DNA of 32,000 nucleotides, from positions 1,230,001-1,262,000 of the forward strand of contig CP060262.1 in the NCBI GenBank assembly GCA_022646745.1, given 5' to 3'. The position numbers and the translations under genes were made by a program. This stretch comes from Planctomycetales bacterium. Its GTDB lineage: Bacteria; 4484-113; JAFGCY01. The notes below the pieces were generated by a model. It had not been told where the DNA came from. It was given only the letters and a program-made list of their open reading frames with translations, and did no database searches. The stretch's first letter is position 1. Every line of letters starts with the position of its first letter. This document shows positions 1,662-31,527 of the stretch, in pieces.

Positions 1662-2195
1662 ATGATGAGGAGACTGTGTTCATTTCTTTGTGTTGCATTT
1701 CTTGGTTTTGCTAGCATTTTCACGGGCTGCAAGGAGAATGATCAAGAACCACTGGACGTGATAGAAAGCTACAGCATTCCGAGGACCGATCTCTTATGGG
1801 GAGTTCTCAATAGCACGGACTATGTGCCATTCAAAGGTGAGTATCCTGAACATTGGCCAGCAGAAGTTACCATTCTAGATGATTCCATTGTCAATTTTGA
1901 TGGGCAAATTTCTGAAAAGAAACAGGATGATTCCCAATTCAACCTATATCTGATTGCAATGCTAACGCCCATGGATCGAAAGCATGTTGAAAAACACTAT
2001 GCAAAACAGTTTGGAAAGCTAGGATATAGGAAGCAGCGTGAAGAGAAAGTGCACCAGGGCTCCGGTACCTTCACTGCTCTTGAGTACCATACTTCGACAA
2101 GAGAGGAATATGCCAGAGTTGCCATATTCGATGTTCAAAGCCTACCTGGATATGTGTTCGTTATGGTACGTATTTGGTACAACCGAGCTGAATAA
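1662..2195 (+). CDS. hypothetical lipoprotein, low-GC gene
   Basis: The ORF track gives 1632-2195. The signal peptide MMRRLCSFLCVAFLGFASIFTGC (lipobox FTGC) begins at the tandem ATGs at 1662/1665. TATAAT at 1652-1657 lies 4 nt and 7 nt upstream of them. The gene is visibly AT-richer than both neighbours. No family recognised. Confidence 0.6.
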   Translation: MMRRLCSFLCVAFLGFASIFTGCKENDQEPLDVIESYSIPRTDLLWGVLNSTDYVPFKGEYPEHWPAEVTILDDSIVNFDGQISEKKQDDSQFNLYLIAMLTPMDRKHVEKHYAKQFGKLGYRKQREEKVHQGSGTFTALEYHTSTREEYARVAIFDVQSLPGYVFVMVRIWYNRAE

Positions 2196-6801: not shown

Positions 6802-6875
6802 GCAAACCCCCAAATCTGCTGAATGCAGTTCAAACCTGGATCACTGATCGCGCGAAGCGCTACTATCCCTCCAAC

Positions 6876-9086
6876 TCATGCCTGCGGGATGTTGCCACGG
6901 ATCGCATAGACCTTCTTCGTGATCCTGTCAGCCACGATCAGCACCGGCTTGTCATTCAGGATCTTCAGGTCCGCGCGTTCGTAGGCATCGATCTCCCCGA
7001 TCTTCATCAGCTGTGTTTCCCATTCACCGTTGCCACGCATCACGGAGCAGTACCAGTCGTGGATCCCGCCGCCCATGTAGACGCAGACCAGGCCGTCGCG
7101 GAAGCGCTCCATCCGGCAGCCCTTGCCGGTCTTGTAGTCCTCGCTGTCGGTGACAAGGTATTGGTCCCAGTATTCATTTCCCTTGTCCTCCATCAGCACC
7201 AGGTTGCGGTTGTAACCGTCGTAGGCAATGATTCCCCAGTGGTCCCCGAGCCATTCCATGTCGCTGTACTGCAGGCCGTAGCTCCAGCCCTCCGGGTTGT
7301 CAGTGACCTGCGTGAACTCGTCGAGGTCCTCGCTCCACAGCAGCAGCTGGCCCGCATCGTAGTCAAATGTGCTGGCGAACAGGCTGCCGTCCCGGGCCTC
7401 GAAGTCCGCCTCACAGGGCCAGCCCTCCGGCAGGCCGAAGAAGTCGTGCTTCTGCCAGGGCTTGTCCTTGCCGAATGGCCGGGTGTACCACTTCTGCCCA
7501 CCACCGTAGAAGTCCACGCCGCTGGCGTTGTAGCCGTTGTCGGAAATGGCAACCTGGCAGAACAGCCCGGCGGCCGGCTGCTGGAAGCCCCCGCCGGTAC
7601 CCTCGTCAATCAGTTCCACATCCCAGCCTACCTCGGGTGCGCCGATCGCGGCATAGTAGTCCAGGCTCTGGGCCGTGACTGATGTGATCAGGTAAGTGCC
7701 GTCGCGGTAGTCAATGTCGAGGTGCTTCTCGAAACCGCCGGCGGAGAAGTATTCGCCGACGTAGTCATTCCAGTACAGGATGCTTTCATCAAGGGCCGTG
7801 CTTTCCACCACCCAGGGTTCGCCCACGCCGTTGTTGCGGGCCACATGCACCACATTGTCAAGGAAATAAGCCGCACAGATCTGGTCGTCCGCGATCACGG
7901 CGGAAATCGGCTCAGTGCCGTCGCCAATCTCCTCCACGTCGTACCATTCCCACTGGTCGCCGGTCAGGCAGGGCAGCGCATCCGTCATGCGGCCCAGCGC
8001 GCCGTTGCTGTCCTTGGCGGCCACGCGCACGAAGTACAGCCGGCCAGGGTCCAGGTTGCTGAACTTGTACTGGCGTGCGCCACCCTGCGGGATGTTCTTC
8101 TTGATGGTCGGCGGCTCGAGGTTGAAGTCCGGCGCGTTGGCAAGGTAGACCACCCAGCTGTTTGGGCTTGGCCCTTCCCAGTCCCAGGCGATTTCAACGT
8201 GGAAGTCCCCGACATCGATGACACGCAAGTTCTGTGGCGCCGGCAGGTCGGCCGCCGGGACATACACGTTCACTGCATTGCTGTAAGCGGATTCGATCGC
8301 GGCAATGGATGTAACGCGGTAGAAGTACATCTCGCCGTTCACCAGCCAGCTGTCCTCATAGCCTGCGCTTGCCAGCGGCTCTTCATTGAGCTTGACCTGG
8401 TCAGCGAACTTGCGGTCGTAGGCGCGATAGACGTTGTAGCCGACGGCATTGTCAACCGGTTGCCAGCTCAGGTGCACGATGCCCGGATCCGCGCTGGCCA
8501 CCAGGTTGGCAGGTGGCTCGAGGTCAGTATCGCCCAGCCTGCCGATTGTCAGCGAATACAGCTTGGCCGCGCCCTCACCGTGACGCAGCACCGTCAAATA
8601 ACAGACGCCGGAGTCGGAGTAGTACTTGCCACCTGCCGGGAACTGGAAACTGAAGTCATCCTTGCCGGCATCGGCGAATACCCAGTGTCCAGTGTTGAAA
8701 TCAGCCACCGCCAGGTAGATGTGGCAGGCTTCGTCCGGGTCGGTGTAAAACGAGGCGAATGCACTGCCGGGAGTGACCTGGCCGAAGCCGCCAAGCGCGT
8801 AGATGCCCCAGGCCGTGTCGCCGCCGTTCAGCTCCAGTGTGGTGCCGACTTCCTCAGCAGTTTCACTCTTTTCCGTCCAGTCGCGGCCCAGCAGCTTGAC
8901 TGAGTCATCACTGATGCTGCGCTCCACGGAATCCGCAAGCACTGACAATGCGGGAAGTGAATCCGCAGCAGCCAGCTGCTGCTGGACTTCCACGGGATCA
9001 GCAGGATCCTGCACGGAGGCGGGTCCCCCGGATCCCGCGCAGGATGCACACAGCAGCGCTGCTGCCAGTATCAGTTTCCTCAACAT
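6876..9086 (-). CDS. large surface lipoprotein, paralog 2 of 4
   Basis: The ORF track gives 6876-9236. The start is placed at the internal Met (9086) of MLRKLILAAALLCASCAGSGG, preceded by the same cttgggggtttgcATG context as paralog 1. Collinear with paralogs 1 and 3. Confidence 0.8.
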   Translation of the reverse strand: MLRKLILAAALLCASCAGSGGPASVQDPADPVEVQQQLAAADSLPALSVLADSVERSISDDSVKLLGRDWTEKSETAEEVGTTLELNGGDTAWGIYALGGFGQVTPGSAFASFYTDPDEACHIYLAVADFNTGHWVFADAGKDDFSFQFPAGGKYYSDSGVCYLTVLRHGEGAAKLYSLTIGRLGDTDLEPPANLVASADPGIVHLSWQPVDNAVGYNVYRAYDRKFADQVKLNEEPLASAGYEDSWLVNGEMYFYRVTSIAAIESAYSNAVNVYVPAADLPAPQNLRVIDVGDFHVEIAWDWEGPSPNSWVVYLANAPDFNLEPPTIKKNIPQGGARQYKFSNLDPGRLYFVRVAAKDSNGALGRMTDALPCLTGDQWEWYDVEEIGDGTEPISAVIADDQICAAYFLDNVVHVARNNGVGEPWVVESTALDESILYWNDYVGEYFSAGGFEKHLDIDYRDGTYLITSVTAQSLDYYAAIGAPEVGWDVELIDEGTGGGFQQPAAGLFCQVAISDNGYNASGVDFYGGGQKWYTRPFGKDKPWQKHDFFGLPEGWPCEADFEARDGSLFASTFDYDAGQLLLWSEDLDEFTQVTDNPEGWSYGLQYSDMEWLGDHWGIIAYDGYNRNLVLMEDKGNEYWDQYLVTDSEDYKTGKGCRMERFRDGLVCVYMGGGIHDWYCSVMRGNGEWETQLMKIGEIDAYERADLKILNDKPVLIVADRITKKVYAIRGNIPQA

Positions 9087-9156
9087 GCAAACCCCCAAGT
9101 CTGCCGGTTGCGTATCCGTCCAGTCTCCAGCCGTGGAAGGCCCAGCCCGGCCATTC

Positions 9157-11382
9157 CTACTCAGGTGGGATGTTGCCACGGATGGCGTAGACCTTCTTCG
9201 TGATCCTGTCAGCCACGATGAACACGGGCTTGTCATCCAGGATCTTCAGGTCGGCGCGCTCATAGGCATCAATCTCACCGATCTTCATCAGCTGCGTTTC
9301 CCATTCGCCGTTGCCACGCAGCACGGAGCAGTACCAGTCCCTGATACCGCCCCCCATGTAGACACAGACCAGCCCGTCGCGGAAAGGTTCCATCCGGCAA
9401 CCCTTGCCGGTCTTGTAGTCATCGGTGTCCGTCACGAGGTACTGGTCCCATGTCGGGTTGCCCTTGTCCTCCAACAGCATCAGGTCGCGGTTGTAGCCAT
9501 CATAGGCGATCAGTCCCCAGTGGTCGCCGAGCCATTCCAGGTCGGTGAACAGCAGTCCGTAGGTCCAGCCCTCCGGGTTGTCAGTGACCTGCGTGAATTC
9601 ATCAAGGTCCTCGGACCAGAGGTAGAGCTCACGATCTATGAAGTCAAAGGAGCTGGCGAACAGGCTGCCACTGCGGACTTCGAAATCCATTTCCGCCGGC
9701 CAGCTTTCCGGGATGGTAAAGAAGTCGTGCTTCTGCCAGGGCTTGTCCTTGCCATAGGGCCTGGTGTACCACTTCAGGCCGCCGCCGTAGAAATCCACGC
9801 CGCTGGCGTTGTAACCGTTGTCAGAGATCGCCACGGAGCAGTAGAGTCCCGCGGTCGGTGCCTGGAACCCCCCGCCGGTGCCCTCATCGATCAGCTCGAC
9901 ATCCCAGCCGGCCTCGGGTGCACCGATTGCTGCGTAGAAGTCGTGGCTCAGTGCGGTGACTGAAGTGATAAGGTAGGTGCCATCCTTGTAGTCAACGTCC
10001 AGGTGCTGCTCGAAGCCCCCAGCGCTGATTTCCTTGCCAACGTAACTGTTCCAGTAGGTGATGCTCTTGTCGAGGTCGGTGCCCTCCACTACCCAGGGCT
10101 CGCCGACGCCGTTGTTGCGCGCCACATGCACGACGTTGTCAAGCATGTATGCGGCGCAGATCTTGTCGTCGGCAATCACGGCGGCAATCGGTTCCTTGCC
10201 GTCGCCGATTTCCTCGATGTCGTACCATTCCCACTGGTCGCCGGTCAGGCAGGGCAGGGCATCCGTCATGCGGCCGAGTGCCCCATTGCTGTCCTTGGCA
10301 GCCAGCCGGACGAAATACAGGCGACCGGGGTCCAGCCCGCTGAACTTGTACTTGCGGGTTCCGCCCTGCGGGATGTTCTTCTTGATGGTCGGCGGCTCGA
10401 GGTTGAAATCCGGCGCGTTGGCCATGTAAACTTCCCAGCCGTTGGGGCTCGGTCCTTCCCAGTCCCAGGCGATCTCGAAGTCGAAGTCACCGACTGACAG
10501 CACTCGTAAATTCTGTGGAGCCGGCAGGTCAGCCGCCGGTACATATACATTCACGGCATTGCTGTAAATGGATTCGATCGCGGCGACGGATGTCACCCGG
10601 TAGAAGTACATCTCACCGCTGACCAGCCAGTCATCCTCGTAGCCAGCTTCCGTGATCGGCTCGGCATTGAGCTTGACCTGGTCAGTGAACTTGCGGTCGT
10701 AGGCCCGGTAGACGTTGTAACCGACGGCATTGCCGACTGCTTGCCAGCCAAGGTGCACGATGCCGGGATCCGCACTGGCCGAGAGGTCCGCCGGGGCCTC
10801 GAGGTTGGTGTCCCCGATGCGACCGATCGTCAGCGAGTACAGCTTGGCATCACCTTCGCCGACGCGCAGCACTGCGATATAGCAGTTGCCTGTCTCCGAA
10901 TGGTACAGGCCATTGGCGGGGAACACGTAACTGAAGTCATCCTTGCCGGCATCCGCGAACACCCAGTGGCCGGTATTGAAATCTGCAACGGCAATGTACA
11001 GCCGGCAGGGGGAATCCTCGTCCGTCCAGAAGCTGGCATAGACACTGCCGGCCTCAACTCCGCCGAAGCCGCCCAGCGCATAGATTCCCCAGGTGTTGTC
11101 CGGGCCATTGAGCTCAAGCGTGGTGCCGATTTCCTCAGCGGTCTCACTCTTGTCAATCCAGTCGCGGCCAAGCAGCTTGATCGAATCGTCGCTCAGGCTG
11201 CGTTCGACGGCGTCCAGGCCATCCGGGAACTGCATTTCCTGCGGTGCAGCAATCTCCGGTCCAGGCTGTAGTGCTGCCAGTGGAGAATTGTCATCCGCCT
11301 GGTTGCCATCCTGCACGACCGCTGTCCGCGAGCCGCAGCTGCACAAAAGCAATGCCAGCATCAGTATGCAAATCCTGCGCAT
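9157..11382 (-). CDS. large surface lipoprotein, paralog 3 of 4
   Basis: The ORF track gives 9157-11454. The start is placed at MRRICILMLALLLCSCGS (11382), preceded by caggaggtacggacATG. Collinear with paralog 2, with most residues identical by eye. Confidence 0.8.
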   Translation of the reverse strand: MRRICILMLALLLCSCGSRTAVVQDGNQADDNSPLAALQPGPEIAAPQEMQFPDGLDAVERSLSDDSIKLLGRDWIDKSETAEEIGTTLELNGPDNTWGIYALGGFGGVEAGSVYASFWTDEDSPCRLYIAVADFNTGHWVFADAGKDDFSYVFPANGLYHSETGNCYIAVLRVGEGDAKLYSLTIGRIGDTNLEAPADLSASADPGIVHLGWQAVGNAVGYNVYRAYDRKFTDQVKLNAEPITEAGYEDDWLVSGEMYFYRVTSVAAIESIYSNAVNVYVPAADLPAPQNLRVLSVGDFDFEIAWDWEGPSPNGWEVYMANAPDFNLEPPTIKKNIPQGGTRKYKFSGLDPGRLYFVRLAAKDSNGALGRMTDALPCLTGDQWEWYDIEEIGDGKEPIAAVIADDKICAAYMLDNVVHVARNNGVGEPWVVEGTDLDKSITYWNSYVGKEISAGGFEQHLDVDYKDGTYLITSVTALSHDFYAAIGAPEAGWDVELIDEGTGGGFQAPTAGLYCSVAISDNGYNASGVDFYGGGLKWYTRPYGKDKPWQKHDFFTIPESWPAEMDFEVRSGSLFASSFDFIDRELYLWSEDLDEFTQVTDNPEGWTYGLLFTDLEWLGDHWGLIAYDGYNRDLMLLEDKGNPTWDQYLVTDTDDYKTGKGCRMEPFRDGLVCVYMGGGIRDWYCSVLRGNGEWETQLMKIGEIDAYERADLKILDDKPVFIVADRITKKVYAIRGNIPPE

Positions 11383-11490
11383 GTCCGTACCTCCTGCGCC
11401 GCCCGCAAGCCTGGCAGGCGCCTGTCCCGGAGGCATCCTGCCTCCAACTTCCATTCCCTGGATCCGCGGATCCTCCAGCCGGTTTATTCC

Positions 11491-13704
11491 CTACAGCTCT
11501 CCGAATGGCGGGATCACTCCCGTCACGCACATGATCTTGTCCTTGTTGGGGGATGTGCTCTCGGTCTCCTCCACGAGGAAGTAGGGCACATCGTTGACGA
11601 CGACCAGCTCGGCACCGGTGGCGGGCTTGACGATCGGCATCAGCATCACCTGCTGGAACCACTGGCTGCCGTCATAAACCGAGCAGTACCAGTTGGTGCT
11701 GTCATCAAGGTAGACGCAGATCAGGCCAGTGCCGCGGAAGGGCTCAAGCCTGGCGTGCCCGCCATATCCGCCTGTTGCCAGGTCCTCGGAGTTCCAGCTG
11801 CCGCCGGACTGGCGCAGCAGGTAGAGGTCATCGTTCGTCACATCGTAGCTGGTGCTGACCCAGCCGCCCGGTGTCATCACCAGGTCGGTGTACAGGCCAT
11901 TGTTGTCACCCATGTTGTCGGAGATCACGGCGGGGGCATACGGAGCCGGGCCCTTGCCGAACAGCAGTTCATGGATCTCATAGTCGAAGTACATGTATTC
12001 TGGATTGTTGCCATTCGCCTTCATCTCGAGCTGCACCGGGAAGCCGCTGTCGTTCAGTGTGCGGACGCTGGTACTGGTCCAGCTGCCCCCGGCGATCGGC
12101 TTCTCACGCATGTAGGTCAGCTTGGCGTAGTAGTCCTTGTCGATGATGTAGTAGCTGTCGTCCGTGATTGCCACCGACAGGTGGTTGCCTGCGCTCGGCA
12201 CGTCGAACTGGCCGACCTTCGTGCCGTCCGCAACGAACTCCTTGGTCCAGCCATTGCCCGGGTCGCCATAACTGGCATACAGGTCCTGGTTGAGGAAGTC
12301 AAATGCACCAACCAGGAACTTACCGTTGCGCTCGGAGATGTCCAGGTAGTTGTCAAAGCTCTCTGTGCCGAACTCCAGCCCGCAGTCGCCAACTGACCAG
12401 CTGCTGCCGGTGCCCTGGGCGAAGGCTACACTGCCCGACGGGGTGCCACCAGCATTCGCACCGAGCCAGATGACACTGGCCGTGTTGCCGGTGGCCACTG
12501 CGCGGATCGGCTCGGAGCCGTTGCCAATCGGGTGCACCTGGGTCCAGTCCCAGAACTCACCGGTGATCGCCGGCAGGTCATCCGTCATCCGGCCGCGGGA
12601 GTTGTTCAGGCTGACGCCGACAATGCGGAAGTAGTACAGCGTGTTGGTCTGCAGGTTGTTGAACTGCGCACTGCGGGCCCAGCTCTGGGAGCGGTAGCGG
12701 ATCTCGATCTCTGGTTCGAGGTTGAAGTCCTTCTCGGCCTTCAGGTAGACATAGAATCCGTTGGCAGGCTCAGGTCCGAGTTCCTCGATGTTCCAGTCCC
12801 AGCCAATCGTGACTGAATCAGGCGTCGCTTCGTCAACACGCGGGTTCTGCGGCGCCGGCATGTCGATCGTCGGTGCGAACAGGTCGATGTAGTCACTCGG
12901 GCCGGATTCCGTTGCGCCGACTGCTGTGACGAAGAAGTAGTAGATAACGCCCTTGAGGATCGGGGTGTAATCGAAGTCCGGGCCTGTCACTGGCTCTGTG
13001 TTCAGCTTCAGCGGGTCACGCAGGTCCGACCAGCGGGAGAAGTAGACGTTGTAGCTCTGAGCACCGGGCACCGGGTCCCACTGCAGGCCGATGTTCTCGG
13101 GAGTCTGCTCGTCACTGCGCAGGTTCTTCGGAGCAGTGATGGTCACATCGCCGACTCGGTTGAAGGTCAGCTTCTGCACGTCTATCGTAGCCGGACCGGT
13201 ACGCAGCAGTGCAATGTGCACGTTGCCGTTCGGGCTGGCGTAATGTGCTGGAGTAACCGGTGTGAAGGTATAGCTTCCATTCTCAGTGGTGCTGAACCAT
13301 TCCCAGCGGCCCTTGTTGTAGTTGGCCATGCCGATGTACAGCACAGTGCCGGCCCCGGTCAGGATGTTGTATTCAGCCTTGATGGAACCGAGGTCCAGTG
13401 TGTCGAAGCTGCTCAGGCTGTAGATCGCCCAGGGGGCCGTGCCATCATTGAGCTTGCAGACCGTGGAGACTGCATGCGCGCCTCCACCGGCTGAGCTGAA
13501 CTCATTGCCCAGCAGCTCGATTGAGTCATCACTGGCCTTGCGGAAGTTGTCCGCCGGTGGCCAGCTGAGGTCTCCCGCTTCGGCCGGCAGGATGTCCACA
13601 GTGCCTGTATCACCTACCCTTGGATCGCCTGAGCCGCAGGAGACAAGCGCGAGTGCAAGTGTGACAAGCATCACGAAGCGACAGTTCTGGAGCAGAATCT
13701 TCAT
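11491..13704 (-). CDS. large surface lipoprotein, divergent paralog 4 of 4
   Basis: 737 aa. The signal is MKILLQNCRFVMLVTLALALVSCGSG (canonical lipobox LVSC), with SD aaagga 6 nt upstream. It has the same module order as the other three, with an FN3-like LQWDPVPGAQSYNVYF...YYFFVTA, but a much more diverged sequence. Confidence 0.8.
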   Translation of the reverse strand: MKILLQNCRFVMLVTLALALVSCGSGDPRVGDTGTVDILPAEAGDLSWPPADNFRKASDDSIELLGNEFSSAGGGAHAVSTVCKLNDGTAPWAIYSLSSFDTLDLGSIKAEYNILTGAGTVLYIGMANYNKGRWEWFSTTENGSYTFTPVTPAHYASPNGNVHIALLRTGPATIDVQKLTFNRVGDVTITAPKNLRSDEQTPENIGLQWDPVPGAQSYNVYFSRWSDLRDPLKLNTEPVTGPDFDYTPILKGVIYYFFVTAVGATESGPSDYIDLFAPTIDMPAPQNPRVDEATPDSVTIGWDWNIEELGPEPANGFYVYLKAEKDFNLEPEIEIRYRSQSWARSAQFNNLQTNTLYYFRIVGVSLNNSRGRMTDDLPAITGEFWDWTQVHPIGNGSEPIRAVATGNTASVIWLGANAGGTPSGSVAFAQGTGSSWSVGDCGLEFGTESFDNYLDISERNGKFLVGAFDFLNQDLYASYGDPGNGWTKEFVADGTKVGQFDVPSAGNHLSVAITDDSYYIIDKDYYAKLTYMREKPIAGGSWTSTSVRTLNDSGFPVQLEMKANGNNPEYMYFDYEIHELLFGKGPAPYAPAVISDNMGDNNGLYTDLVMTPGGWVSTSYDVTNDDLYLLRQSGGSWNSEDLATGGYGGHARLEPFRGTGLICVYLDDSTNWYCSVYDGSQWFQQVMLMPIVKPATGAELVVVNDVPYFLVEETESTSPNKDKIMCVTGVIPPFGEL

Positions 13705-18856: not shown

Positions 18857-19195
18857 ATGAATCGCATCAGCATCGTTATCGCTGCCATTGCCATGATGGC
18901 CCTCGCTGCCTGTTCCAGTACAGCAGGCAATGACATGATTTCAGACAGCATGCAGCAGAAGGACGCAAGCAGCGTGTCACTGACCCTGGTCTGGAATGCA
19001 AATGCCACGCTGTGCAACTTCAAGCTGGCTGACTACGATGCCACGCTCGGCGAGCTGTACAAGGGCACTGACTTCGACGCCGACATGGATCGCATGGAGG
19101 AAGCCATCGCCTTTGAACTCAGCCTCAATCGCAATGACATCCAGGGTGAGTCCACCATGGGATTCGTCCACTTCGACGATGAAGTCGTCGACTGA
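18857..19195 (+). CDS. small lipoprotein, cassette module 1 (112 aa)
   Basis: SD ggagga 6 nt upstream. Signal plus lipobox MNRISIVIAAIAMMALAAC. The C-terminus STMGFVHFDDEVVD is shared with the two downstream copies. Confidence 0.8.
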   Translation: MNRISIVIAAIAMMALAACSSTAGNDMISDSMQQKDASSVSLTLVWNANATLCNFKLADYDATLGELYKGTDFDADMDRMEEAIAFELSLNRNDIQGESTMGFVHFDDEVVD

Positions 19196-19242
19196 GCCGG
19201 CAGGCACTGGTATCCAATTCACCAACTAACAAAGGAAAAAAA

Positions 19243-19374
19243 ATGAGCAACAACCACTTCGACATCAACCAGCAGACCATCAACCTTCCGGCTGGCGCAC
19301 ACGGCGTGCTCAGCACCTGCCTGACCGACAGCAGCCCGGACTATGTGTGGTTCGACTGCGAAGCCGAACTCTAG
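19243..19374 (+). CDS. 43-aa peptide, cassette module 1 (absent from the ORF track, below its length cutoff)
   Basis: My translation is MSNNHFDINQQTINLPAGAHGVLSTCLTDSSPDYVWFDCEAEL. SD aaagga lies upstream. The 29 C-terminal codons differ from copy 2 only by synonymous changes. Confidence 0.8.
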   Translation: MSNNHFDINQQTINLPAGAHGVLSTCLTDSSPDYVWFDCEAEL

Positions 19375-19441
19375 GAACGTGACAAACCTTCCGCGCTGAG
19401 CGGAATCGCCATCCAACCCAGTTACAAGAGAGGAATACACA

Positions 19442-19633
19442 ATGAAGAAGATCAGCATCACCATCGCCACCATCGCCCTGTTCGCGCTCTGCTCCTGCTC
19501 CGGCCAGGGATCCACCGACATGCTTGGTGAAAGCAACACCGAATACGGCAATCCGAGCCTTGGCCAGGATGCTTCCGTGGACTTCCGCGACACCAGCGGC
19601 TTCGTGCACTTTGATGATGAGACGGTCGACTAG
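19442..19633 (+). CDS. small lipoprotein, cassette module 2 (63 aa, internally shortened variant)
   Basis: SD agagagga. Signal MKKISITIATIALFALCSC. It keeps the C-terminal GFVHFDDETVD but lacks the central WNAN...DF..DM...E.AIA block found in modules 1 and 3. Confidence 0.7.
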   Translation: MKKISITIATIALFALCSCSGQGSTDMLGESNTEYGNPSLGQDASVDFRDTSGFVHFDDETVD

Positions 19634-19672
19634 ACCTGCAAGTAATCCACCACCTACTGCGAGGAAAGAACA

Positions 19673-19804
19673 ATGAGCAACATCAACAACGACAGCAACA
19701 TCCAGAGCATCAGCCTCCCCGCCGGTGCCCATGGTGTCCTGAGCACCTGCCTGACTGACAGCAGCCCGGACTACGTATGGTTCGACTGCGAGGCTGAGCT
19801 CTAG
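19673..19804 (+). CDS. 43-aa peptide, cassette module 2 (absent from the ORF track)
   Basis: My translation is MSNINNDSNIQSISLPAGAHGVLSTCLTDSSPDYVWFDCEAEL. SD gaggaaag lies upstream. Confidence 0.8.
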   Translation: MSNINNDSNIQSISLPAGAHGVLSTCLTDSSPDYVWFDCEAEL

Positions 19805-19873
19805 GAACCACCTGCACCTGTCCGGGATTACCGGGCTGGACCAGACCGAAAGATACATCCAAGGAGAAATAAA

Positions 19874-20203
19874 ATGAACAAGATCAACACCCTCATCGCC
19901 ATCGTCGCCCTCAGCATCCTCTGCTCCTGCTCCGGCCAGTCCACCAGCGACATGCTTGCCGAGCGCAACACCGCAGATGTGACCTCCGTGATCGACGGCT
20001 GGAATGCCAACTGCGCCACCTACAACTTCGGCCCGGCTTACTCCGATGAGACCCTTGGCGACATCTACTACGGCTCTGACTTCGAGACCGACATGAACGG
20101 CATCGAGCAGGCGATCGCAGACTACTACGGCATCTCCCGCGACAACGTGGATGGCACCTCCACCATGGGTTTCGTGCACTTCGATGATGAGACGGTGGAC
20201 TAA
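19874..20203 (+). CDS. small lipoprotein, cassette module 3 (109 aa)
   Basis: SD aaggag. Signal MNKINTLIAIVALSILCSC. Collinear with module 1 (WNANCATYNF, GSDFETDM, IEQAIA). The C-terminus is STMGFVHFDDETVD. Confidence 0.8.
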   Translation: MNKINTLIAIVALSILCSCSGQSTSDMLAERNTADVTSVIDGWNANCATYNFGPAYSDETLGDIYYGSDFETDMNGIEQAIADYYGISRDNVDGTSTMGFVHFDDETVD

Positions 20204-20264
20204 ACAGTAACCAGGCAATTCCTGTCTGAATACTGAACACCTGAACACCCAAGAGGAAAGAGAA

Positions 20265-20396
20265 ATGGAAAAGAACAACATCGAGATCGAGCAGCCGACG
20301 GCAAGCCTCCCCGCAGGAGCGCATGGCATCCTCAGCACACGCCTGACGGATGAGAGCCCGGATTACGTCTGGTTCGACTGCGAAGCCGAGCTGTAG
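20265..20396 (+). CDS. 43-aa peptide, cassette module 3 (absent from the ORF track)
   Basis: My translation is MEKNNIEIEQPTASLPAGAHGILSTRLTDESPDYVWFDCEAEL. SD agaggaaag lies upstream. Confidence 0.8.
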   Translation: MEKNNIEIEQPTASLPAGAHGILSTRLTDESPDYVWFDCEAEL

Positions 20397-23144: not shown

Positions 23145-24890
23145 ATGAGCAGATTCGCAATGATGCTGGCCGTGCTGGCGCTGCTGCCCGCGATGGCCCT
23201 TGCCAACGGCTACGACACCTACAGTGCACCGATCGCCTGGAGCCCGGACAGCCACGAGCTGTGCGTGGTGCAGGGCTACGACTGGCCCCAGCCGCAGGTT
23301 GCCAACGAAGGCAGCGTGCTGGTGTATGACCAGTACGGTCGGATCCAGTACGACCTCGGGACCTGGGATGCAGGCTCGCCGGCCTACAGCCCGGATGGGA
23401 AGTACCTCGCAGTGATTGCCAACGGACAGGCGCAGCTCTTCCTGCGCGACGGCTATGAGCCGCTTGCGCCGGTGGACCTCGAGGGCAGCGGGCTGGACCT
23501 GGCCTTCGTCGGCCAGCCGGGTGAGTACGAGCTGGCCTACAGTGTCGGGCCGCGCTTCTACGGGGCCAGCCTCGTGATCCAGCAGCCGGAGGGTGGCAAC
23601 GAGACCGAACTGCCAAAGCCCCTGCCCGGTGACAGCGCGATCAGCCTGCGGATGTGCCCGACGGACTGGCGGATGGCCTTCCTGCTGCAGAGCACGGCGG
23701 ACAACGGCCCGGCCTACGAGCGGATCTACGGTTTCGATGACAACGGCGAACCCTACCAGCTGACGAGGCCGCAGTTGCGCCCTGATGACTACCACGAAAG
23801 CAACATCTGCTTCATGCCCGATGGCAGCCTGCTGTTCCAGCGCGGCGGCTGGGGGGACTGGCACATCTTCCGGCTCGATCCGGCCAGCGGACGCGAGACC
23901 CTCGTTGTCCCGGATGCGCAGCAGCCCAGCGTCAGTGCGGACGGAAGGCTGATTGCGTTCACGCGGCGCAGCTATGCAGATAAGCAGAAGGTCGAATACG
24001 ACTGGGAGATCCCGCCCGGGGTCTGGGTGCGTGACCTGGCAACCGGCCAGGAGTGGCGCATCAGTGACAACGAGAATGAGGCGGAGCATCCGGTGATCTC
24101 ACCGGACGGGCGCAAGCTGGCCTGGCTGCAGCGCATGGAGACTGAGCCGCGCCTGATGGTGCGCAGCGTGATCGGCTTCACCGGCGTGCTCGAGAAGCTG
24201 GAGCAGGATGCCGATGACGACACGGTAATGTATGAAGACATCCAGATGGACGAGCCGCTGATTGACGACGAGCAGGACCCGGAACTGGGCGGGATTGACA
24301 GCACGGCTGAACACCTGTCCCCCAAGGCAATGGAGATCAGCTACGTCAAGTTCGAATGCACGAATGGCGACATCATCTTCGCCGTGCACCATGAGTGGAA
24401 CCCGCTGGCGGCGGAGCGCTTCATCACGCTTGTCAACAGCGGCTACTACGACGGCGCACCCTGGTTCCGGGTGATTGACGGTTTCGTGGCCCAGTGTGGC
24501 ATCAGTGCGGACCCGCGCATGAATGCGGAATGGGACGAGGCGACCTTCCCGGATGAGGAGGTGCTGGTTGGCAACACCCGCGGGATGGTGGCCTACGGCA
24601 AGACAGGCGACCCGGATTCGCGCACCACGCATATCTACATCAACTATGGCGACAACTCACGGCTGGACGAGAAGGGCTTCAGCGCATTCGCTGAGGTCTG
24701 GCAGGGAATGGACGTGGCCGACTCGCTGTTCCGCTGCGAGTATGACGACCAGGAAGGGTTGGCGGCGGAGGGCGGCCTGGCCAAATTCCGTGAGATGTTC
24801 CCCGAGGCGGATTTCATTGAGCTGGCCTATGTGATGGAGGGCGATCCACCGGCCTACCAGCCTGTGCTGGAGCCGGAATCGATGGAATAA
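23145..24890 (+). CDS. exported fusion protein: TolB-like (PD40) beta-propeller plus C-terminal cyclophilin-type peptidyl-prolyl isomerase
   Basis: Signal MSRFAMMLAVLALLPAMALA. PD40-like repeats: SPDGKYLAV, MPDGSLLF, SADGRLIAFT, SPDGRKLAW. The C-terminal ~170 aa match the cyclophilin signature (NPLAAERFITLVNSGYYDGAPWFRVIDGFVAQCG ... RGMVAYGKTGDPDSRTTHIYINYGDNSRLD ... FAEVWQGMDV). Confidence 0.8.
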   Translation: MSRFAMMLAVLALLPAMALANGYDTYSAPIAWSPDSHELCVVQGYDWPQPQVANEGSVLVYDQYGRIQYDLGTWDAGSPAYSPDGKYLAVIANGQAQLFLRDGYEPLAPVDLEGSGLDLAFVGQPGEYELAYSVGPRFYGASLVIQQPEGGNETELPKPLPGDSAISLRMCPTDWRMAFLLQSTADNGPAYERIYGFDDNGEPYQLTRPQLRPDDYHESNICFMPDGSLLFQRGGWGDWHIFRLDPASGRETLVVPDAQQPSVSADGRLIAFTRRSYADKQKVEYDWEIPPGVWVRDLATGQEWRISDNENEAEHPVISPDGRKLAWLQRMETEPRLMVRSVIGFTGVLEKLEQDADDDTVMYEDIQMDEPLIDDEQDPELGGIDSTAEHLSPKAMEISYVKFECTNGDIIFAVHHEWNPLAAERFITLVNSGYYDGAPWFRVIDGFVAQCGISADPRMNAEWDEATFPDEEVLVGNTRGMVAYGKTGDPDSRTTHIYINYGDNSRLDEKGFSAFAEVWQGMDVADSLFRCEYDDQEGLAAEGGLAKFREMFPEADFIELAYVMEGDPPAYQPVLEPESME

Positions 24891-24912
24891 AGCATTCACC
24901 TAAACATATGTA

Positions 24913-24934
24913 GGGATTTAAGCGCTTAAATCCC
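24913..24934. promoter_or_regulatory. perfect 22-bp palindrome GGGATTTAAGC|GCTTAAATCCC
   Basis: Read directly. It lies 22 nt after the PPIase-fusion stop codon and 23 nt upstream of the -35 of the Cys-rich gene promoter. There is no U-tract. Confidence 0.5.
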
Positions 24935-24957
24935 ACTGCTGAAGCGGGCTGAGCTGC

Positions 24958-24986
24958 TTGTCGCTCCATGGCTCGCATTGTATAAT
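24958..24986 (+). promoter_or_regulatory. sigma70-type promoter TTGTCG-N17-TATAAT for the first Cys-repeat gene
   Basis: TTGTCG at 24958-24963, a 17-nt spacer, then TATAAT at 24981-24986. SD ggag lies 7 nt before the ATG at 25021. Confidence 0.5.
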
Positions 24987-25020
24987 TTTCGACACCTATT
25001 ACGAATCAGCGGAGCAACTG

Positions 25021-25716
25021 ATGAGGAAAGTGATCTTCGCCGCGATGATCGTGGCGGCACTGACGGTATTTGCAGGGGGCACTTCCACAGCCTGGGCAGG
25101 TTGTGGCTGCAAGGATAAGTGCGGATGCTCCCAGAAGGCTGACTGCGGCTGCAAGGACAAGTGTGGCTGTGAGAAGCCGAAGTGCGGCAAGTGCGAAAGC
25201 AAGTGTGGCTGCGAGAAGCCCAAGTGCAACAAGTGCGAGAGCAAGTGCGGCTGCAGCAAGCCCAAGTGCAACAAATGCGAGAACAAGTGCGGCTGTGAGT
25301 CCAAGTCCAAGTGCGGTTGCTCCAGCGGCTGTGACTGCTGCGTCCAGAAGGTCGCGCAGAACCACCATCCCTACGAATGCCAGTACCGTGGCAGCAGCAT
25401 GGTCTGCGACATGGGCTGCTGCAGCGGCCCGATCTGCATCCCCAAGTGCGAGGTCTGCACGACCACCTGCACCAAGAAGGAATGCACCGACAGCTGCGGC
25501 TGCTCCCATGTGACCTGGGAAAGCCACACCACCTGCGGAGCTCCCGAGCGTCCGCGCACCATCCCCTGGTGGTTCAACATCGAGGCCGGCACCGGCAATA
25601 TCTACCTTGAGGGTGATGAGAAGTGGGAAAGCGCCAGCGAGGAAGGCGGTGAGGAGATGGCTTCCGCCGAGAAGAGCAGCGAAAAGTCTGAAACCGTTGA
25701 GTCCAGCGAAGCTTAA
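25021..25716 (+). CDS. exported cysteine-repeat protein (KCGC repeats, metallothionein-like), acidic C-terminal tail
   Basis: The ORF track gives 24958-25716. The Met at 25021 has an SD and starts the signal MRKVIFAAMIVAALTVFAGGTSTAWA. I count about 37 Cys, 25 of them within an ~81-aa block of the form GCGCKDKCGC...KCGCEKPKC(G/N)KCESKCGC... Confidence 0.75.
   Translation: MRKVIFAAMIVAALTVFAGGTSTAWAGCGCKDKCGCSQKADCGCKDKCGCEKPKCGKCESKCGCEKPKCNKCESKCGCSKPKCNKCENKCGCESKSKCGCSSGCDCCVQKVAQNHHPYECQYRGSSMVCDMGCCSGPICIPKCEVCTTTCTKKECTDSCGCSHVTWESHTTCGAPERPRTIPWWFNIEAGTGNIYLEGDEKWESASEEGGEEMASAEKSSEKSETVESSEA
25159..25284 (+). repeat. in-frame 42-bp tandem repeat x3 (KCGC[ES]KPKC[GN]KCE[SN])
   Basis: Units at 25159-25200, 25201-25242 and 25243-25284, with degenerate Cys-rich units on both sides. 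Confidence 0.8.
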
Positions 25717-25790
25717 GCCTGGCGCGCCGGATATCGATAAGTAGCAAGGCAAAGAAACATACAGACGGAGAAATCCGGGAGGGTTAGAAG

Positions 25791-26309
25791 ATGAAGAAGT
25801 TTGTGATCAGCAGCTTCCTGGCAGCGGTGGCGGTTTTCGCCCTGCTCGGTTCCGCTTCCGCAAGCACTGTTTCCAGCGCGGTTGACAATGCCATCGTGGC
25901 CGTCAACATGCAGGTCGGTGCCGTCAGCTTTGACGTTGCCCACTGTGGCAAGTGCGGCATGGAAGGCGAGCACGCTGCCAAGGCTGACATGAAGATGGAC
26001 CACGGCGCCAACTGCGGCTGTGGCTGCAAGAGCAAGTGCGGCTGCTCCAAGCCCAAGTGTGGCTGTGAGAAGAAGTGCGGTTGCTCCAAGCCCAAGTGCG
26101 GTTGCGAGAAGAAGTGCGGCTGCTCCAAGCCCAAGTGCGGTTGCGAGAAGAAGTGCGGCTGCGAGAAGCCGAAGTGCGGCTGTGAGAAGAAGTGCGGCTG
26201 CAAGGACAAGTGCGAGTGCTGCCCCAAGAAGGTTGAGAACTACCCCGATGCCAACCGTGGCGCCGAGGGTGAGTGGGCCCGCGATGGCCTCAGCCGCCAG
26301 AAGGCGTAG
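25791..26309 (+). CDS. exported cysteine-repeat protein 2 (KCGCSKPKCGCEK repeats, metallothionein-like)
   Basis: SD gggaggg upstream. Signal MKKFVISSFLAAVAVFALLGSASA. 26 Cys in 172 aa. Differences between repeat units fall on third codon positions of this frame. Confidence 0.8.
   Translation: MKKFVISSFLAAVAVFALLGSASASTVSSAVDNAIVAVNMQVGAVSFDVAHCGKCGMEGEHAAKADMKMDHGANCGCGCKSKCGCSKPKCGCEKKCGCSKPKCGCEKKCGCSKPKCGCEKKCGCEKPKCGCEKKCGCKDKCECCPKKVENYPDANRGAEGEWARDGLSRQKA
26034..26222 (+). repeat. in-frame 39-bp tandem repeat, 4 full units plus a partial fifth
   Basis: Units at 26034-26072, 26073-26111, 26112-26150 and 26151-26189, plus a partial unit at 26190-26222. Units 1-3 differ only by ggc/ggt and tgt/tgc synonymous changes. 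Confidence 0.85.
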
Positions 26310-26335
26310 TCGCTGACCAGCATCGACTGAATAGG

Positions 26336-26365
26336 GCGGCCGGGGAATCCCCGGTCGCCTTTTCC
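26336..26365 (+). terminator. Rho-independent terminator after the second Cys-repeat gene
   Basis: The stem GCGGCCGGGG (26336-26345) pairs with CCCCGGTCGC (26349-26358), 10 bp including one G-U, with loop AAT. It is followed by CTTTTCC. Confidence 0.6.
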
Positions 26366-26460
26366 ATATCAGGGGGATCGCAAGGGTCAGTCCCCCGGCC
26401 AGTCCGGGGGAATCACAGGGTCCGTGCAGTCGGACAGACCAGATCTCACAGGGACGAGAG

Positions 26461-26865
26461 ATGACGAGGCTAACTGAAATAGAGCAGATCGGCAGCAGCT
26501 ACGTTGACAGGCTGGAGGATGCCGGAGTGGAGACAGTCGAAGCCCTGCTGGCAGCCTGCCGCACCGCGGCCGGCCGCATCGAGCTCGGCCGGCGCACCGG
26601 GATCAGCGAGAACCTGCTGCTGGGCTGGGCCCAGCGCGCGGAGCTGGAGACCATCGACAATCTGTCCGAGGAATTCGCGGACCTGATCGAGGCGGCGGGT
26701 GTCGGCGGCCTGCAGCAGCTGGCGGAATTTGACGAAGCGGAACTGCTGGAACTGCTGGAGCGCAGCAATGAACGCAGCCAGATCGTCATCGAACTGCCGG
26801 ACCCCTACCAGGTCTCTGACTGGATCAGCCAGGCGAAGTCGTTGCCAAGGCTGATTGAGTACTAG
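26461..26865 (+). CDS. DUF4332-like (tandem helix-hairpin-helix-like) protein
   Basis: 134 aa. Two halves resemble DUF4332 as I remember it: LTEIEQIGSSYVDRLEDAGVETVEALL and ELETIDNLSEEFADLIEAAGVGGLQQLAEF. Confidence 0.55.
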   Translation: MTRLTEIEQIGSSYVDRLEDAGVETVEALLAACRTAAGRIELGRRTGISENLLLGWAQRAELETIDNLSEEFADLIEAAGVGGLQQLAEFDEAELLELLERSNERSQIVIELPDPYQVSDWISQAKSLPRLIEY

Positions 26866-30084: not shown

Positions 30085-30156
30085 AATGGCAGATCTGGCC
30101 TAAAATCAGGACAGGGAGTGTCGCATTGCGGCACAAGAGGAAGAACGGAGGCGCAC

Positions 30157-31527
30157 ATGACTGCACTGCGAGGCAGCCTGATCGGGGCGGCTATGGCCGC
30201 GCTGCTGGCAACACCGGCACTGGCCGGCAATGGCATCGAGGACATCGGCACCACCATCCGTGAACTGGGGCGCGGCGGCACCTTCATCGGTGCCGAGGGC
30301 GAGGTCGGTTCGATGATGGGCAACCCGGCCGCCCTGGCCTGGCTGCGGGAGTCCGAGTTCTACCTCGACGGCCGGCTCTGGCAGTCGCAGCTGGACTACA
30401 GCGGAGCGCTCAACGGCATCGGGCAGAAGGAGAACTACGTAGTTCCCAACATCGGCTATGCCGCTCCGGTGGACTGCCGCCTGAGCTGGGGCCTTGGTGT
30501 GTTCACCACCGTCAACTCATCCTTCAGGGTGACGGACTACGACCTGAGCCTGCTTGGTGCCCCGGCCGGGACCACGGACCGCAGCAGCACTAAGGTGCGC
30601 TTCGCCGTGATCACCCCTTCCATAGCCTACAAGCTCAGTGACGACACTGCCATCGGCGCTTCGCTGCATTACACCAACGGCAGCGCGGACTTCCAGGGCT
30701 ACAACATCCTCGGGGATACCCTGGGCTACAGCCTGAACGGCCCGAGTGGTTCCGGCCATATGCTGCGGCTTGGCCTGTCCCACCGTGCAGATGAGCAGAC
30801 CACGCTCGGAGCCTATTGGCGCAGCCGCAGCCACCTCGACATCAGCGGTGGCGACCTCGCCTTCGGTGCGCTGACACCGACGCCGGGCGTTGTCATCCCG
30901 GAGACGGGCATCGAGGGCTTCCAGTTCCCCGAGCAGTACGGTGTCGGCATCCGGCATGAGGCTGACGAGGAATGGACCTGGATGGCGGACTACCGCAGGC
31001 TGCTGTGGAGCGGCAGCGGTGAGACGATCAGCTTCGTGCCGTCGCAGGGACCGCCGCTTGGTCTTGCAATGGACTGGAGCGACCAGGATGTGTACGCGCT
31101 CGGCGCGGAGTACAGCCCGGGCTGCGGCGACGACACCTGGCGCTTCGGCCTGAATTACGCGGCCTCCCCGGTGCCGGACAGCACGCTCAGCCCGCTCTAT
31201 CCTGCTATCAGTGAATGGCATTACACGATGGGCTGGGAGGGTGAAGTCGCTGACAACCTGAGCCTGCTGACCGGCGCGGTCTATTCACCGTCCGTCAGCC
31301 GCAGCTCGGCAGTTGGCAATCCGTTCAATGACCTGCTGGGCATGGGCCAGCCGTTCCAGCTGAGCCTTGACAACCTGGAACTCGGCATCGGCCTGAGCTG
31401 GAAGCTGGGCAGCGGCGGTTCGGGCCGCAGCACGGTTGACAACGACTGCGATGGCTGCCATTGCAAGGAATGCTGCGACTGCGAATGCGGCTGCGGGGCG
31501 GAAGGCTACGCCGCACTGTCAGAGTAG
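30157..31527 (+). CDS. FadL/OmpP1-family outer-membrane transport protein with a Cys-cluster C-terminal tail
   Basis: The ORF track gives 30118-31527. The Met at 30157 has SD ggagg and starts the signal MTALRGSLIGAAMAALLATPALA. The N-terminal region is FadL-like (GRGGTFIGAEGEVGSMMGNPAALAWL). The tail, CDGCHCKECCDCECGCG, has 8 Cys within 17 residues (31447-31494). Confidence 0.7.
   Translation: MTALRGSLIGAAMAALLATPALAGNGIEDIGTTIRELGRGGTFIGAEGEVGSMMGNPAALAWLRESEFYLDGRLWQSQLDYSGALNGIGQKENYVVPNIGYAAPVDCRLSWGLGVFTTVNSSFRVTDYDLSLLGAPAGTTDRSSTKVRFAVITPSIAYKLSDDTAIGASLHYTNGSADFQGYNILGDTLGYSLNGPSGSGHMLRLGLSHRADEQTTLGAYWRSRSHLDISGGDLAFGALTPTPGVVIPETGIEGFQFPEQYGVGIRHEADEEWTWMADYRRLLWSGSGETISFVPSQGPPLGLAMDWSDQDVYALGAEYSPGCGDDTWRFGLNYAASPVPDSTLSPLYPAISEWHYTMGWEGEVADNLSLLTGAVYSPSVSRSSAVGNPFNDLLGMGQPFQLSLDNLELGIGLSWKLGSGGSGRSTVDNDCDGCHCKECCDCECGCGAEGYAALSE

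Follow-up and report, generated by a model that had tools for sequence, protein, structure and literature searches.

Two adjacent genes in a 32,000-nucleotide stretch of a Planctomycetales bacterium (assembly GCA_022646745.1, contig CP060262.1, positions 1,230,001 to 1,262,000; hereafter the window, in which positions without a locus name are numbered from its first nucleotide) constitute a previously undescribed, lineage-restricted cassette for exported, ultra-cysteine-rich repeat proteins. The genes, here called P1 and P2 along with their products, form a self-contained operon, which has a promoter of the consensus type, a strong ribosome-binding site for each gene and a terminator. Tentatively, and with somewhat less than an even chance of being right, we favour the view that the two products make up an abundant disulfide-crosslinked matrix in the cell envelope, with conserved end modules as docking sites. 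A sequence-only reading of the window had described them as exported metallothionein-like proteins and had mentioned a crosslinked structural role as a further option, which we rank slightly above a metal-binding sponge. It had missed that the genes are a conserved pair and that each protein carries a conserved module at its non-repetitive end.

The coordinates, lengths and cysteine counts given in that reading for P1 and P2 were reproduced exactly on recount (Table 1). P1 is identical to the NCBI entry 'hypothetical protein H7A35_04975', from a metagenome-assembled genome (MAG) named Planctomycetales bacterium with a 4.1-Mb contig of 60% GC, and is present on 16 contigs. The other genes in the window contain about 0.7% cysteine (14 cysteine codons in about 1960 reference codons), so that the cysteine content of P1 and P2, enriched about 20-fold, is far beyond chance. 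The counts in P1 and P2, in this order, are 9 and 11 for the motif CGC, 6 and 9 for KCGC and 10 and 12 for CxC. The mature proteins have calculated masses of 22.0 kDa (P1) and 15.5 kDa (P2).

Conservation and distribution of the gene pair

In HMMER-based searches of 5.8 billion clusters, only 16 relatives were obtained for P1 and 13 for P2. When 1.84 billion representatives were searched exhaustively with a profile of the P1 C-terminal domain, 13 proteins were recovered, of which 11 scored below E = 1e-10, and scans of genomes and metagenomes added 19 further loci. A P2-type gene followed P1 on the same strand, at a distance of about 40-110 nucleotides (nt), in every locus with downstream sequence. 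The pair is the conserved unit, and at least 16 distinct loci from 4-5 clades contain it (the window, L001, L002, L004/L008, L005, L007, L009-L014, L024, L026-L028 and L031-L034).

The records that contain relatives are labelled 'UBP7', 'Planctomycetales bacterium' or plain 'bacterium', and one ENA name includes '4484_113'. Current usage treats UBP7 and 4484-113 as separate candidate phyla, and genomes of the latter (Ca. Niteriota) are 1.5-4.1 Mb in size with 44-64% GC and come from activated-sludge bioreactors (PMC11382960). In size, GC content and habitat, the genome studied here would fit 4484-113 better than UBP7. The family is small, and all members known so far stem from MAGs of one uncultured lineage that is common in wastewater reactors.

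P1 and P2 as genuine genes of the plus strand

The sequence-only reading had left room for Ala/Leu-rich open reading frames (ORFs) on the minus strand as the expressed products, and the antisense frame is indeed open across both genes within the window. A comparison of 10 loci favoured the sense genes, the sense frame being open in all of them and the antisense frame broken in four (L009, L001, L005 and L011). Synonymous codon changes were about as frequent as non-synonymous changes between the window and its orthologues (for example, 59 synonymous versus 44 non-synonymous changes between P1 and its counterpart in L009). Synonymous changes dominated among the pairwise codon differences between repeat units, at 17 versus 3 in P2 and 10 versus 6 in P1; the earlier description of these differences as synonymous is thus mostly, though not entirely, correct. 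Length variants differed by whole units of 13 amino acids (aa; 39 bp), the signal peptides, ribosome-binding sites and promoter were conserved, and the non-repetitive domain was kept at 40-50% identity. With the sense frame always open and under purifying selection, the minus-strand ORFs are ruled out as true genes and are compositional shadows, open through codon composition only.

The broader suspicion that P1 and P2 are not genes at all, and arose as an artefact of repeats or composition, could also appeal to the collapse of such repeats in short-read assemblies, as in the chimeric contig that encodes protein P0020. Given the comparative data above, this explanation appears already refuted and we attach almost no credence to it. 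P0020 itself (L015, positions 60-440, 126 aa) joins the P1 N-terminus of an L004-type species to the P2 C-terminus of a window-type species and lies 60 nt from the contig end. It was rejected as evidence of recombination, being probably a cross-strain assembly chimera formed via shared repeats, and urges caution where repeat numbers are called from short reads. P2 was called as a protein of 172 aa in L017, L018 and L020 and as a variant of 159 aa, one unit shorter, in L016 and L019; the short form comes from two independent assemblies, in which short-read collapse is possible.

Domain architecture

Both proteins start with a predicted signal peptide of the canonical Sec/signal peptidase I type, in agreement with the sequence-only reading, which had also correctly identified the in-frame 42-bp and 39-bp tandem repeats (recovered with Tandem Repeats Finder, TRF) and the non-repetitive cysteine-rich domain and acidic tail of P1. 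The repeats encode units of the form KCGC-x-K-P-K. The signal pattern of P1, MRK followed by a hydrophobic core and A[WY]A, is kept in all homologues. At the cleavage site the window has W-A-G-C and the orthologues have A-W-A-D-C or A-Y-A-G-D-C. A lipoprotein was ruled out, as there is no lipobox of the form [LVI][ASTVI][GAS]C and the LPAM_1 model remained sub-threshold (12.2 bits versus 20). A precursor of a ribosomally synthesized and post-translationally modified peptide was also set aside on account of the Sec signals, the large size and the lack of maturation enzymes nearby.

The arrays consist of 31-34% cysteine and 22-26% lysine (27-29% lysine plus arginine), with zero aromatic residues and almost no hydrophobic ones. 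In P1, the array is followed by a conserved domain that reads HHPYE...CxxxCxxCxxxC...RPRTIPWWFN..G.GNIY in the window and HPYE…G.GMLCD.GCC…PCKR.C..C.T.C…RP..IPWWFN..G.GN.Y, over about 85 aa, in the family. Besides cysteine, this domain contains W, Y, F and H. The acidic tail that follows is found in most homologues and is variable in sequence. AlphaFold2 models of full-length P1 had a mean predicted local distance difference test (pLDDT) score of 42.5, with the arrays predicted to be disordered, and no helices were predicted in the mature parts. For the C-terminal domain the mean pLDDT was 61.0, and the sole confident element was a long beta-hairpin (pLDDT about 80); a Foldseek search against the PDB gave no match below E = 1.

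P2 has an additional module between signal peptide and array, whose Met/His stretch is restricted to the closest relatives (P0015, P0017 and P0019). Its C-terminal module is defined across relatives by the motif CCPK…E[YF]P[DN]…G…R.G.SR..A, with the invariant residues C143, P145, P152, R164, G166, S168 and R169 (alignment A7). The same motif is present in the P2-like genes of L024-L034.

Table 1. Features of the P1-P2 operon in window coordinates (pI, isoelectric point).
Feature	Position	Strand	Description
Palindrome	24913..24934	.	GGGATTTAAGC/GCTTAAATCCC; perfect 11+11; 23 nt past the stop of the upstream peptidyl-prolyl isomerase (PPIase) gene
Sigma-70-type promoter	24958..24986	+	TTGTCG, 17-nt spacer, TATAAT; TG directly 5' (extended -10)
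P1 Shine-Dalgarno	25011..25014	+	GGAG, 6 nt before the P1 ATG; predicted from sequence
P1 gene	25021..25716	+	231 aa, 37 Cys (16.0%)
P1 Sec signal peptide	25021..25098	+	26 aa, predicted cut after AWA, MRKVIFAAMIVAALTVFAGGTSTAWA|GC
P1 Cys/Lys array	25099..25341	+	Residues 27-107; 25 Cys, 19 K+R, pI 8.6, zero aromatics
P1 tandem repeat	25158-25299	+	TRF: 42 bp x3.4, 87% match, in frame
P1 conserved C-terminal domain	25357..25608	+	Residues 113-196; 12 Cys; alignments A1, A2, A6
P1 acidic Ser/Glu tail	25609..25713	+	Residues 197-231; 35 aa, pI 4.05
P2 Shine-Dalgarno	25777..25783	+	GGGAGGG, 7 nt before the P2 ATG
P2 gene	25791..26309	+	172 aa, 26 Cys (15.1%)
P2 Sec signal peptide	25791..25862	+	24 aa, predicted cut after ASA, MKKFVISSFLAAVAVFALLGSASA|ST; conserved in alignment A7
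P2 N-terminal module	25863..26012	+	Contains His/Met-rich stretch HCGKCGMEGEHAAKADMKMDHGAN
P2 Cys/Lys array	26013..26222	+	Residues 75-144; 24 Cys, 20 K+R, pI 8.9
P2 tandem repeat	26022-26201	+	TRF: 39 bp x4.6, 89% match, in frame
P2 conserved C-terminal module	26217..26306	+	CCPKKVENYPDANRGAEGEWARDGLSRQKA
Terminator-like hairpin	26334..26370	+	GGGCGGCCGGGGA/TCCCCGGTCGCC, then TTTTCC; closes the two-gene unit

Expression signals

A promoter scan of positions 24700-26600 identified the site upstream of P1 as the sole promoter-like site, versus 0.4 expected by chance. Different clades retain the consensus promoter, TGTATAAT. All of 7 divergent loci have GTATAAT, in most cases preceded by TG, some 30 nt ahead of the ATG, and strong Shine-Dalgarno sites are likewise invariant in them; the sequences further upstream could not be aligned. 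At the P1 ribosome-binding site, GCGGAGCA is kept within the close clade. The spacer of 74 nt between P1 and P2 contains no terminator-like site. The hairpin downstream of P2 was missed by a simple terminator scan, since it is followed by only 4 T's. A TTG start at 24958 was ruled out, the -10 box being located inside the extension and the ATG at 25021 being conserved together with its Shine-Dalgarno sequence.

The sequence-only reading had proposed the upstream palindrome as a binding site for a metal-sensing regulator. The palindrome is real, yet it is absent from the same position in L008, L001, L005 and L009; it is therefore no conserved operator and was rejected as a metal-regulator site. 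Nor was any conserved inverted repeat or operator found across clades at the promoter, and the 17-nt spacer is not MerR-like. The conserved promoter is apparently constitutive, and the codon usage of P1 and P2 is skewed. Signals and codons of this kind are features of abundant, constitutively made proteins and lead us to predict high expression.

The 5' untranslated region (24987-25020; TTTCCGATACCTATTAGGAATCAGCGGAGCA) is near-invariant in L008, L001, L005 and L009, in which P1 itself is 62-81% identical. A weak inverted repeat within this region, GATACCTA-T-TAGGAATC, is degenerate in the window and absent from other clades.

Turnover of the repeat arrays

The arrays are of low complexity, usually with K-P-K linkers, and are built on CxC here and on CxPC or Cx3C elsewhere. 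Among the gaps between cysteines in the window, the CxC type predominates, with 9 of 24 in the P1 array and 12 of 23 in the P2 array, and in the window clade the gap is mostly 1, in alternation with gaps of 3-4. In L002 and L013 the gaps alternate between 2 and 3 (C-[EDN]-P-C-K-P-K), and in L010 they are mostly 3. The arrays of P1 relatives range from 74 to 151 aa and vary freely in length and flavour even though the C-terminal domains are 45-50% identical. Lysine is usual, not universal: P2 of L014 is rich in cysteine and proline and has 2 lysines, and P2 of L024 and L033 is rich in serine, asparagine, glycine and cysteine.

The flavour of the array co-varies between P1 and P2 of one genome, and 36-nt units with 83-89% identity are common to both arrays of the window. 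The modules are exchangeable, since protein P0025 combines a P2-type N-terminal module with a P1 C-terminal domain. Cysteine spacing is not conserved and a single cysteine is dispensable, as in P2 of the near-identical strain L007, which has lost one array cysteine; the number of cysteines in the mature proteins is odd about as often as even. As judged from these comparisons, the arrays evolve fast while their composition is kept.

Genomic context

Within the close clade, the pair is preceded by a gene for a PD40-cyclophilin protein and followed by genes for a DUF4332 protein and a zinc-ribbon membrane protein. In other clades the neighbours are a transglutaminase-core gene, or acylphosphatase and gltX. 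Conserved neighbours were therefore ruled out as a clue to function, synteny being limited to the close clade with no shared partner. No metal sensor, transporter, efflux or resistance gene was located near the pair in about 20 loci examined. No Dsb-type gene or peptide-maturation enzyme adjoined it in any locus, and no DsbD, thioredoxin-like or Msr partner was present in any neighbourhood.

The upstream gene in the window (23145-24890, plus strand) encodes an exported fusion of 581 aa between a PD40/TolB-like beta-propeller and a cyclophilin-type PPIase. The PPIase may conceivably aid the folding of K-P-K-rich arrays; it is syntenic only in the close clade.

Additional cysteine-rich proteins were observed in several genomes. 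A third paralogue, P0014 (L006, positions 8001-8774; 257 aa, 51 Cys), comes from the same MAG as L004/L008 and consists of a signal peptide, nine CGCEKPK units, a non-repetitive middle and a second cysteine array; it is located at an unrelated locus and has neither a P1- nor a P2-type end module. In L027 the pair is followed by a gene (1785-2189, plus strand) for a third small exported cysteine-rich protein of 134 aa with 15 Cys, rich in histidine, aspartate and arginine and with an MMMGN stretch. About 1.3-2 kb upstream of the pair in the metagenome contig L032, two genes (1178-1510 and 1708-1959, plus strand) encode exported proteins extremely rich in cysteine and tyrosine, with MRKL signal peptides and CCCC runs and almost free of lysine; one of them, CDCCCPSYSYCCNDCCCGCYYYYYPCCCNYCYYDCCC…, has 27 Cys in about 58 mature residues. 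The L032 proteins suggest a wider repertoire of exported ultra-cysteine-rich proteins in the lineage.

Possible functions of P1 and P2

In the model that we favour, the arrays would be exported, the signal peptide would be cut and the disordered arrays would then be oxidised in the envelope. Disulfides within and between molecules would produce an abundant, covalently crosslinked and mostly polycationic protein mesh, in which the repeat number would set both length and crosslink valency. The beta-hairpin/PWWFN domain at the C-terminus of P1 and the YP...G.SR motif at the C-terminus of P2 would provide sites for docking or assembly. An outer membrane is present, since the window encodes a FadL-type outer-membrane protein at 30118-31527.

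Several observations are consistent with a crosslinked matrix. The pair is conserved, modules are shuffled by way of the arrays, and the arrays change freely in flavour and length between orthologues. The expression signals and codon usage are those of abundant proteins, P2 of L014 is proline-rich and lysine-poor, and metal genes are lacking nearby. The conservation of the end modules argues for specific interactions beyond bulk chemistry, the multi-component cysteine-rich set of L032 is typical of crosslinked materials, and the mixture of odd and even cysteine counts fits intermolecular bonds. There are precedents in PVC bacteria, among them the cysteine-rich wall proteins of Planctomycetales (PMC8567305). 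Other considerations weigh against the matrix. Close cysteine pairs (CxC, CxxC) would tend to favour local disulfides over crosslinks. The lysines beside cysteines, the absence of aromatic residues and the Met/His stretch of P2 are at least equally compatible with metal-thiolate chemistry. The name of the L013 MAG ('Zod_Metabat') suggests an anoxic sulfidic spring, in which disulfides would be unstable, and the predicted structures are of low confidence.

Soft metals would also be bound by a layer so dense in thiols, and the metallothionein-like reading is a close rival that overlaps with the matrix. According to it, reduced arrays in the periplasm would wrap soft metals such as Cu(I), Zn and Cd, possibly also As(III) or Hg, in metal-thiolate clusters, with lysine lowering the thiol pKa and balancing the charge and with the end modules docking the loaded protein. 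The composition of the arrays and the dominance of CxC agree with this chemistry, as does their predicted disorder, which is shared with apo-metallothioneins. The arrays of P2 in L024 and L033 are much like fungal or plant metallothioneins, the MEGEH...MKMDH stretch of P2 in the window recalls periplasmic Cu(I) sites, unconstrained cysteine parity fits metal ligation, and relatives occur in possibly anoxic habitats. Valls et al. (2000; listed among the references of PMC1533851) reportedly displayed a mouse metallothionein on the surface of Ralstonia eutropha in order to immobilise heavy metals, which we count in favour of this rival. Thiolate-based storage of metals outside the cytoplasm does exist in the form of Csp1 (PMC7558416).

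The claim that P1 and P2 are exported metallothionein-like proteins is partly supported: it agrees with their composition (cysteine, lysine and CxC), but a place in a known family and a genomic setting linked to metals are both lacking. The isolated arrays matched no metallothionein model in Pfam or NCBIfam, even at E <= 10. The absence of metal sensor, efflux and resistance genes around the pair and a promoter of the conserved consensus type without a MerR-like spacer or conserved operator speak against a metal sponge, and Sec would deliver unfolded thiols into a normally oxidising compartment. The proline-rich, lysine-poor and tyrosine-rich relatives are unlike metallothioneins, and a simple sponge leaves the conserved pair and end modules unexplained. 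We consider it possible, albeit doubtful, that the arrays serve as a metal sponge. Equally doubtful is the fuller claim of a two-component periplasmic poly-dithiol sponge or scavenging scaffold, with which P1 and P2 would be the first natural case in bacteria of a metallothionein-like system that is Sec-exported and repeat-expanded. Such a system, with dedicated docking modules and confined to one uncultured lineage, could bind tens of soft metal ions per molecule.

A periplasmic redox buffer or sacrificial thiol sink is distinctly improbable. Here, the CxC and CxPC dithiol/disulfide couples would act as a reversible electron reservoir of high capacity. In settings such as aerated or chlorinated wastewater, they could also remove oxidants or electrophiles from the envelope. 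Every flavour of the array keeps close cysteine pairs, with a gap of 1 in the window clade and of 2 elsewhere (C-x-P-C, compare CGPC of thioredoxin), and expression is predicted to be high. Woycechowsky and Raines (2003) are said to have found a redox potential for a CGC peptide near that of protein disulfide isomerase. The neighbourhoods contain no reductase or oxidase partner, however, the end modules and the pairing are left unexplained, and we know of no precedent for a redox buffer of this kind.

If P1 and P2 are abundant crosslinked envelope proteins, they reveal part of the envelope make-up of an uncultured lineage and imply that cysteine-rich wall proteins evolved independently in bacteria. 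If they bind metals, they overturn the view of bacterial metallothioneins as small and cytosolic and give wastewater organisms a natural scaffold with which metals could be captured outside the cell. In both cases, the C-terminal domain of P1 and the C-terminal motif of P2 are undescribed modules that are specific enough to serve as markers of the lineage, and the arrays clearly exemplify repeats that evolve rapidly, keep their composition and co-vary between adjacent genes.

Other genes in the window

Two further sets of tandemly repeated genes were observed in the window. Positions 18857-20396 on the plus strand contain a two-gene module in three tandem copies with no Pfam matches. Its lipoprotein-like ORFs of about 110 aa (18857..19195; 19442..19633, truncated; 19874..20203) end in GFVHFDDE[VT]VD, and its ORFs of 43 aa, one downstream of each lipoprotein-like ORF (19243..19374, 19673..19804 and 20265..20396), end in LPAGAHG[VI]LST.LTD.SPDYVWFDCEAEL. 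Pairs of ORFs of 109 and 43 aa from this module were also called in L004 and L005. On the minus strand, four paralogous ORFs of about 740-790 aa are arranged in tandem at positions 4594-13704; every one of them has a single fibronectin type III domain at approximately the same position and nothing else recognisable.

Comparison with known systems

P1 and P2 belong to no described family, and their likeness to known systems is one of analogy only. Neither protein matched a Pfam or NCBIfam model above threshold in searches with the full proteins at E <= 1, sequence and profile searches of the PDB and tblastn against plasmids gave no match, and a literature search on the peptide motifs returned nothing relevant. 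The only near-match was between the CKPKC-type array of P1 in L013 and the Pfam family MSSP of Drosophila male-specific sperm proteins (E = 0.004, 17.1 bits versus a cut-off of 21.2). The sequence-only reading had considered an exported, repeat-expanded protein of this type unusual, and the libraries searched contain no description of anything like it.

P1 and P2 share with metallothioneins (SmtA/BmtA, MymT and fungal Cu-thioneins) a very high cysteine content in CxC, CxxC and CC arrangements, lysines beside cysteines and a cysteine region that lacks aromatic residues and is predicted to be disordered without ligand; internal repeats are also known from the metallothioneins of Tetrahymena and Cryptococcus. 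They differ in being Sec-exported rather than cytosolic, in having additional conserved modules that are not of metallothionein type and in mature sizes of 15.5 and 22 kDa, metallothioneins being commonly defined by few or no aromatic residues together with <10 kDa. Unlike in the SmtA/SmtB and MymT paradigm, no regulator gene adjoins the pair in any locus and no operator is conserved across clades; a regulator encoded at a distance is possible.

The bacterial protein Csp1 is likewise exported and uses its cysteine thiolates to store many Cu(I) ions (PMC7558416). It is exported in a pre-folded state by the twin-arginine translocation (Tat) pathway and forms a tetramer of four-helix bundles with 13 Cys, whereas P1 and P2 have Sec signals without a twin arginine, no predicted helices, 26-37 Cys placed in disordered repeats and no corresponding Pfam hit.

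Among eukaryotes, the keratin-associated proteins, the late cornified envelope and SPRR proteins and MSSP have similar short repeats of cysteine, proline and lysine (CKPKC, CPPKC). Their multi-gene sets also include ultra-high-cysteine and tyrosine-rich members and show rapid repeat turnover. These proteins are eukaryotic and intracellular, and the likeness is compositional with no homology indicated.

The chlamydial proteins OmcA and OmcB are crosslinked by disulfides in the envelope. Like P1 and P2, they are encoded by two adjacent co-oriented genes (the omcAB operon) for a smaller and a larger exported cysteine-rich protein of a diderm bacterium. OmcB is folded, with about 4-5% cysteine, whereas P1 and P2 consist of low-complexity tandem repeats, lack a lipobox and gave no hit to Chlam_OMP3 or Chlam_OMP6 in Pfam. 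The YTV proteins, recovered from wall preparations of Planctomycetales, are exported, rich in cysteine and proline and lineage-restricted (PMC8567305). They are said to be confined to the Planctomycetales, whereas the MAGs studied here are in several cases so labelled and in others labelled UBP7 or 4484-113; the YTV domain of Pfam gave no hit in P1 or P2 and the architecture differs. The matrix that we favour would be a functional analogue of both OmcA/OmcB and the YTV proteins, unrelated to them in sequence.

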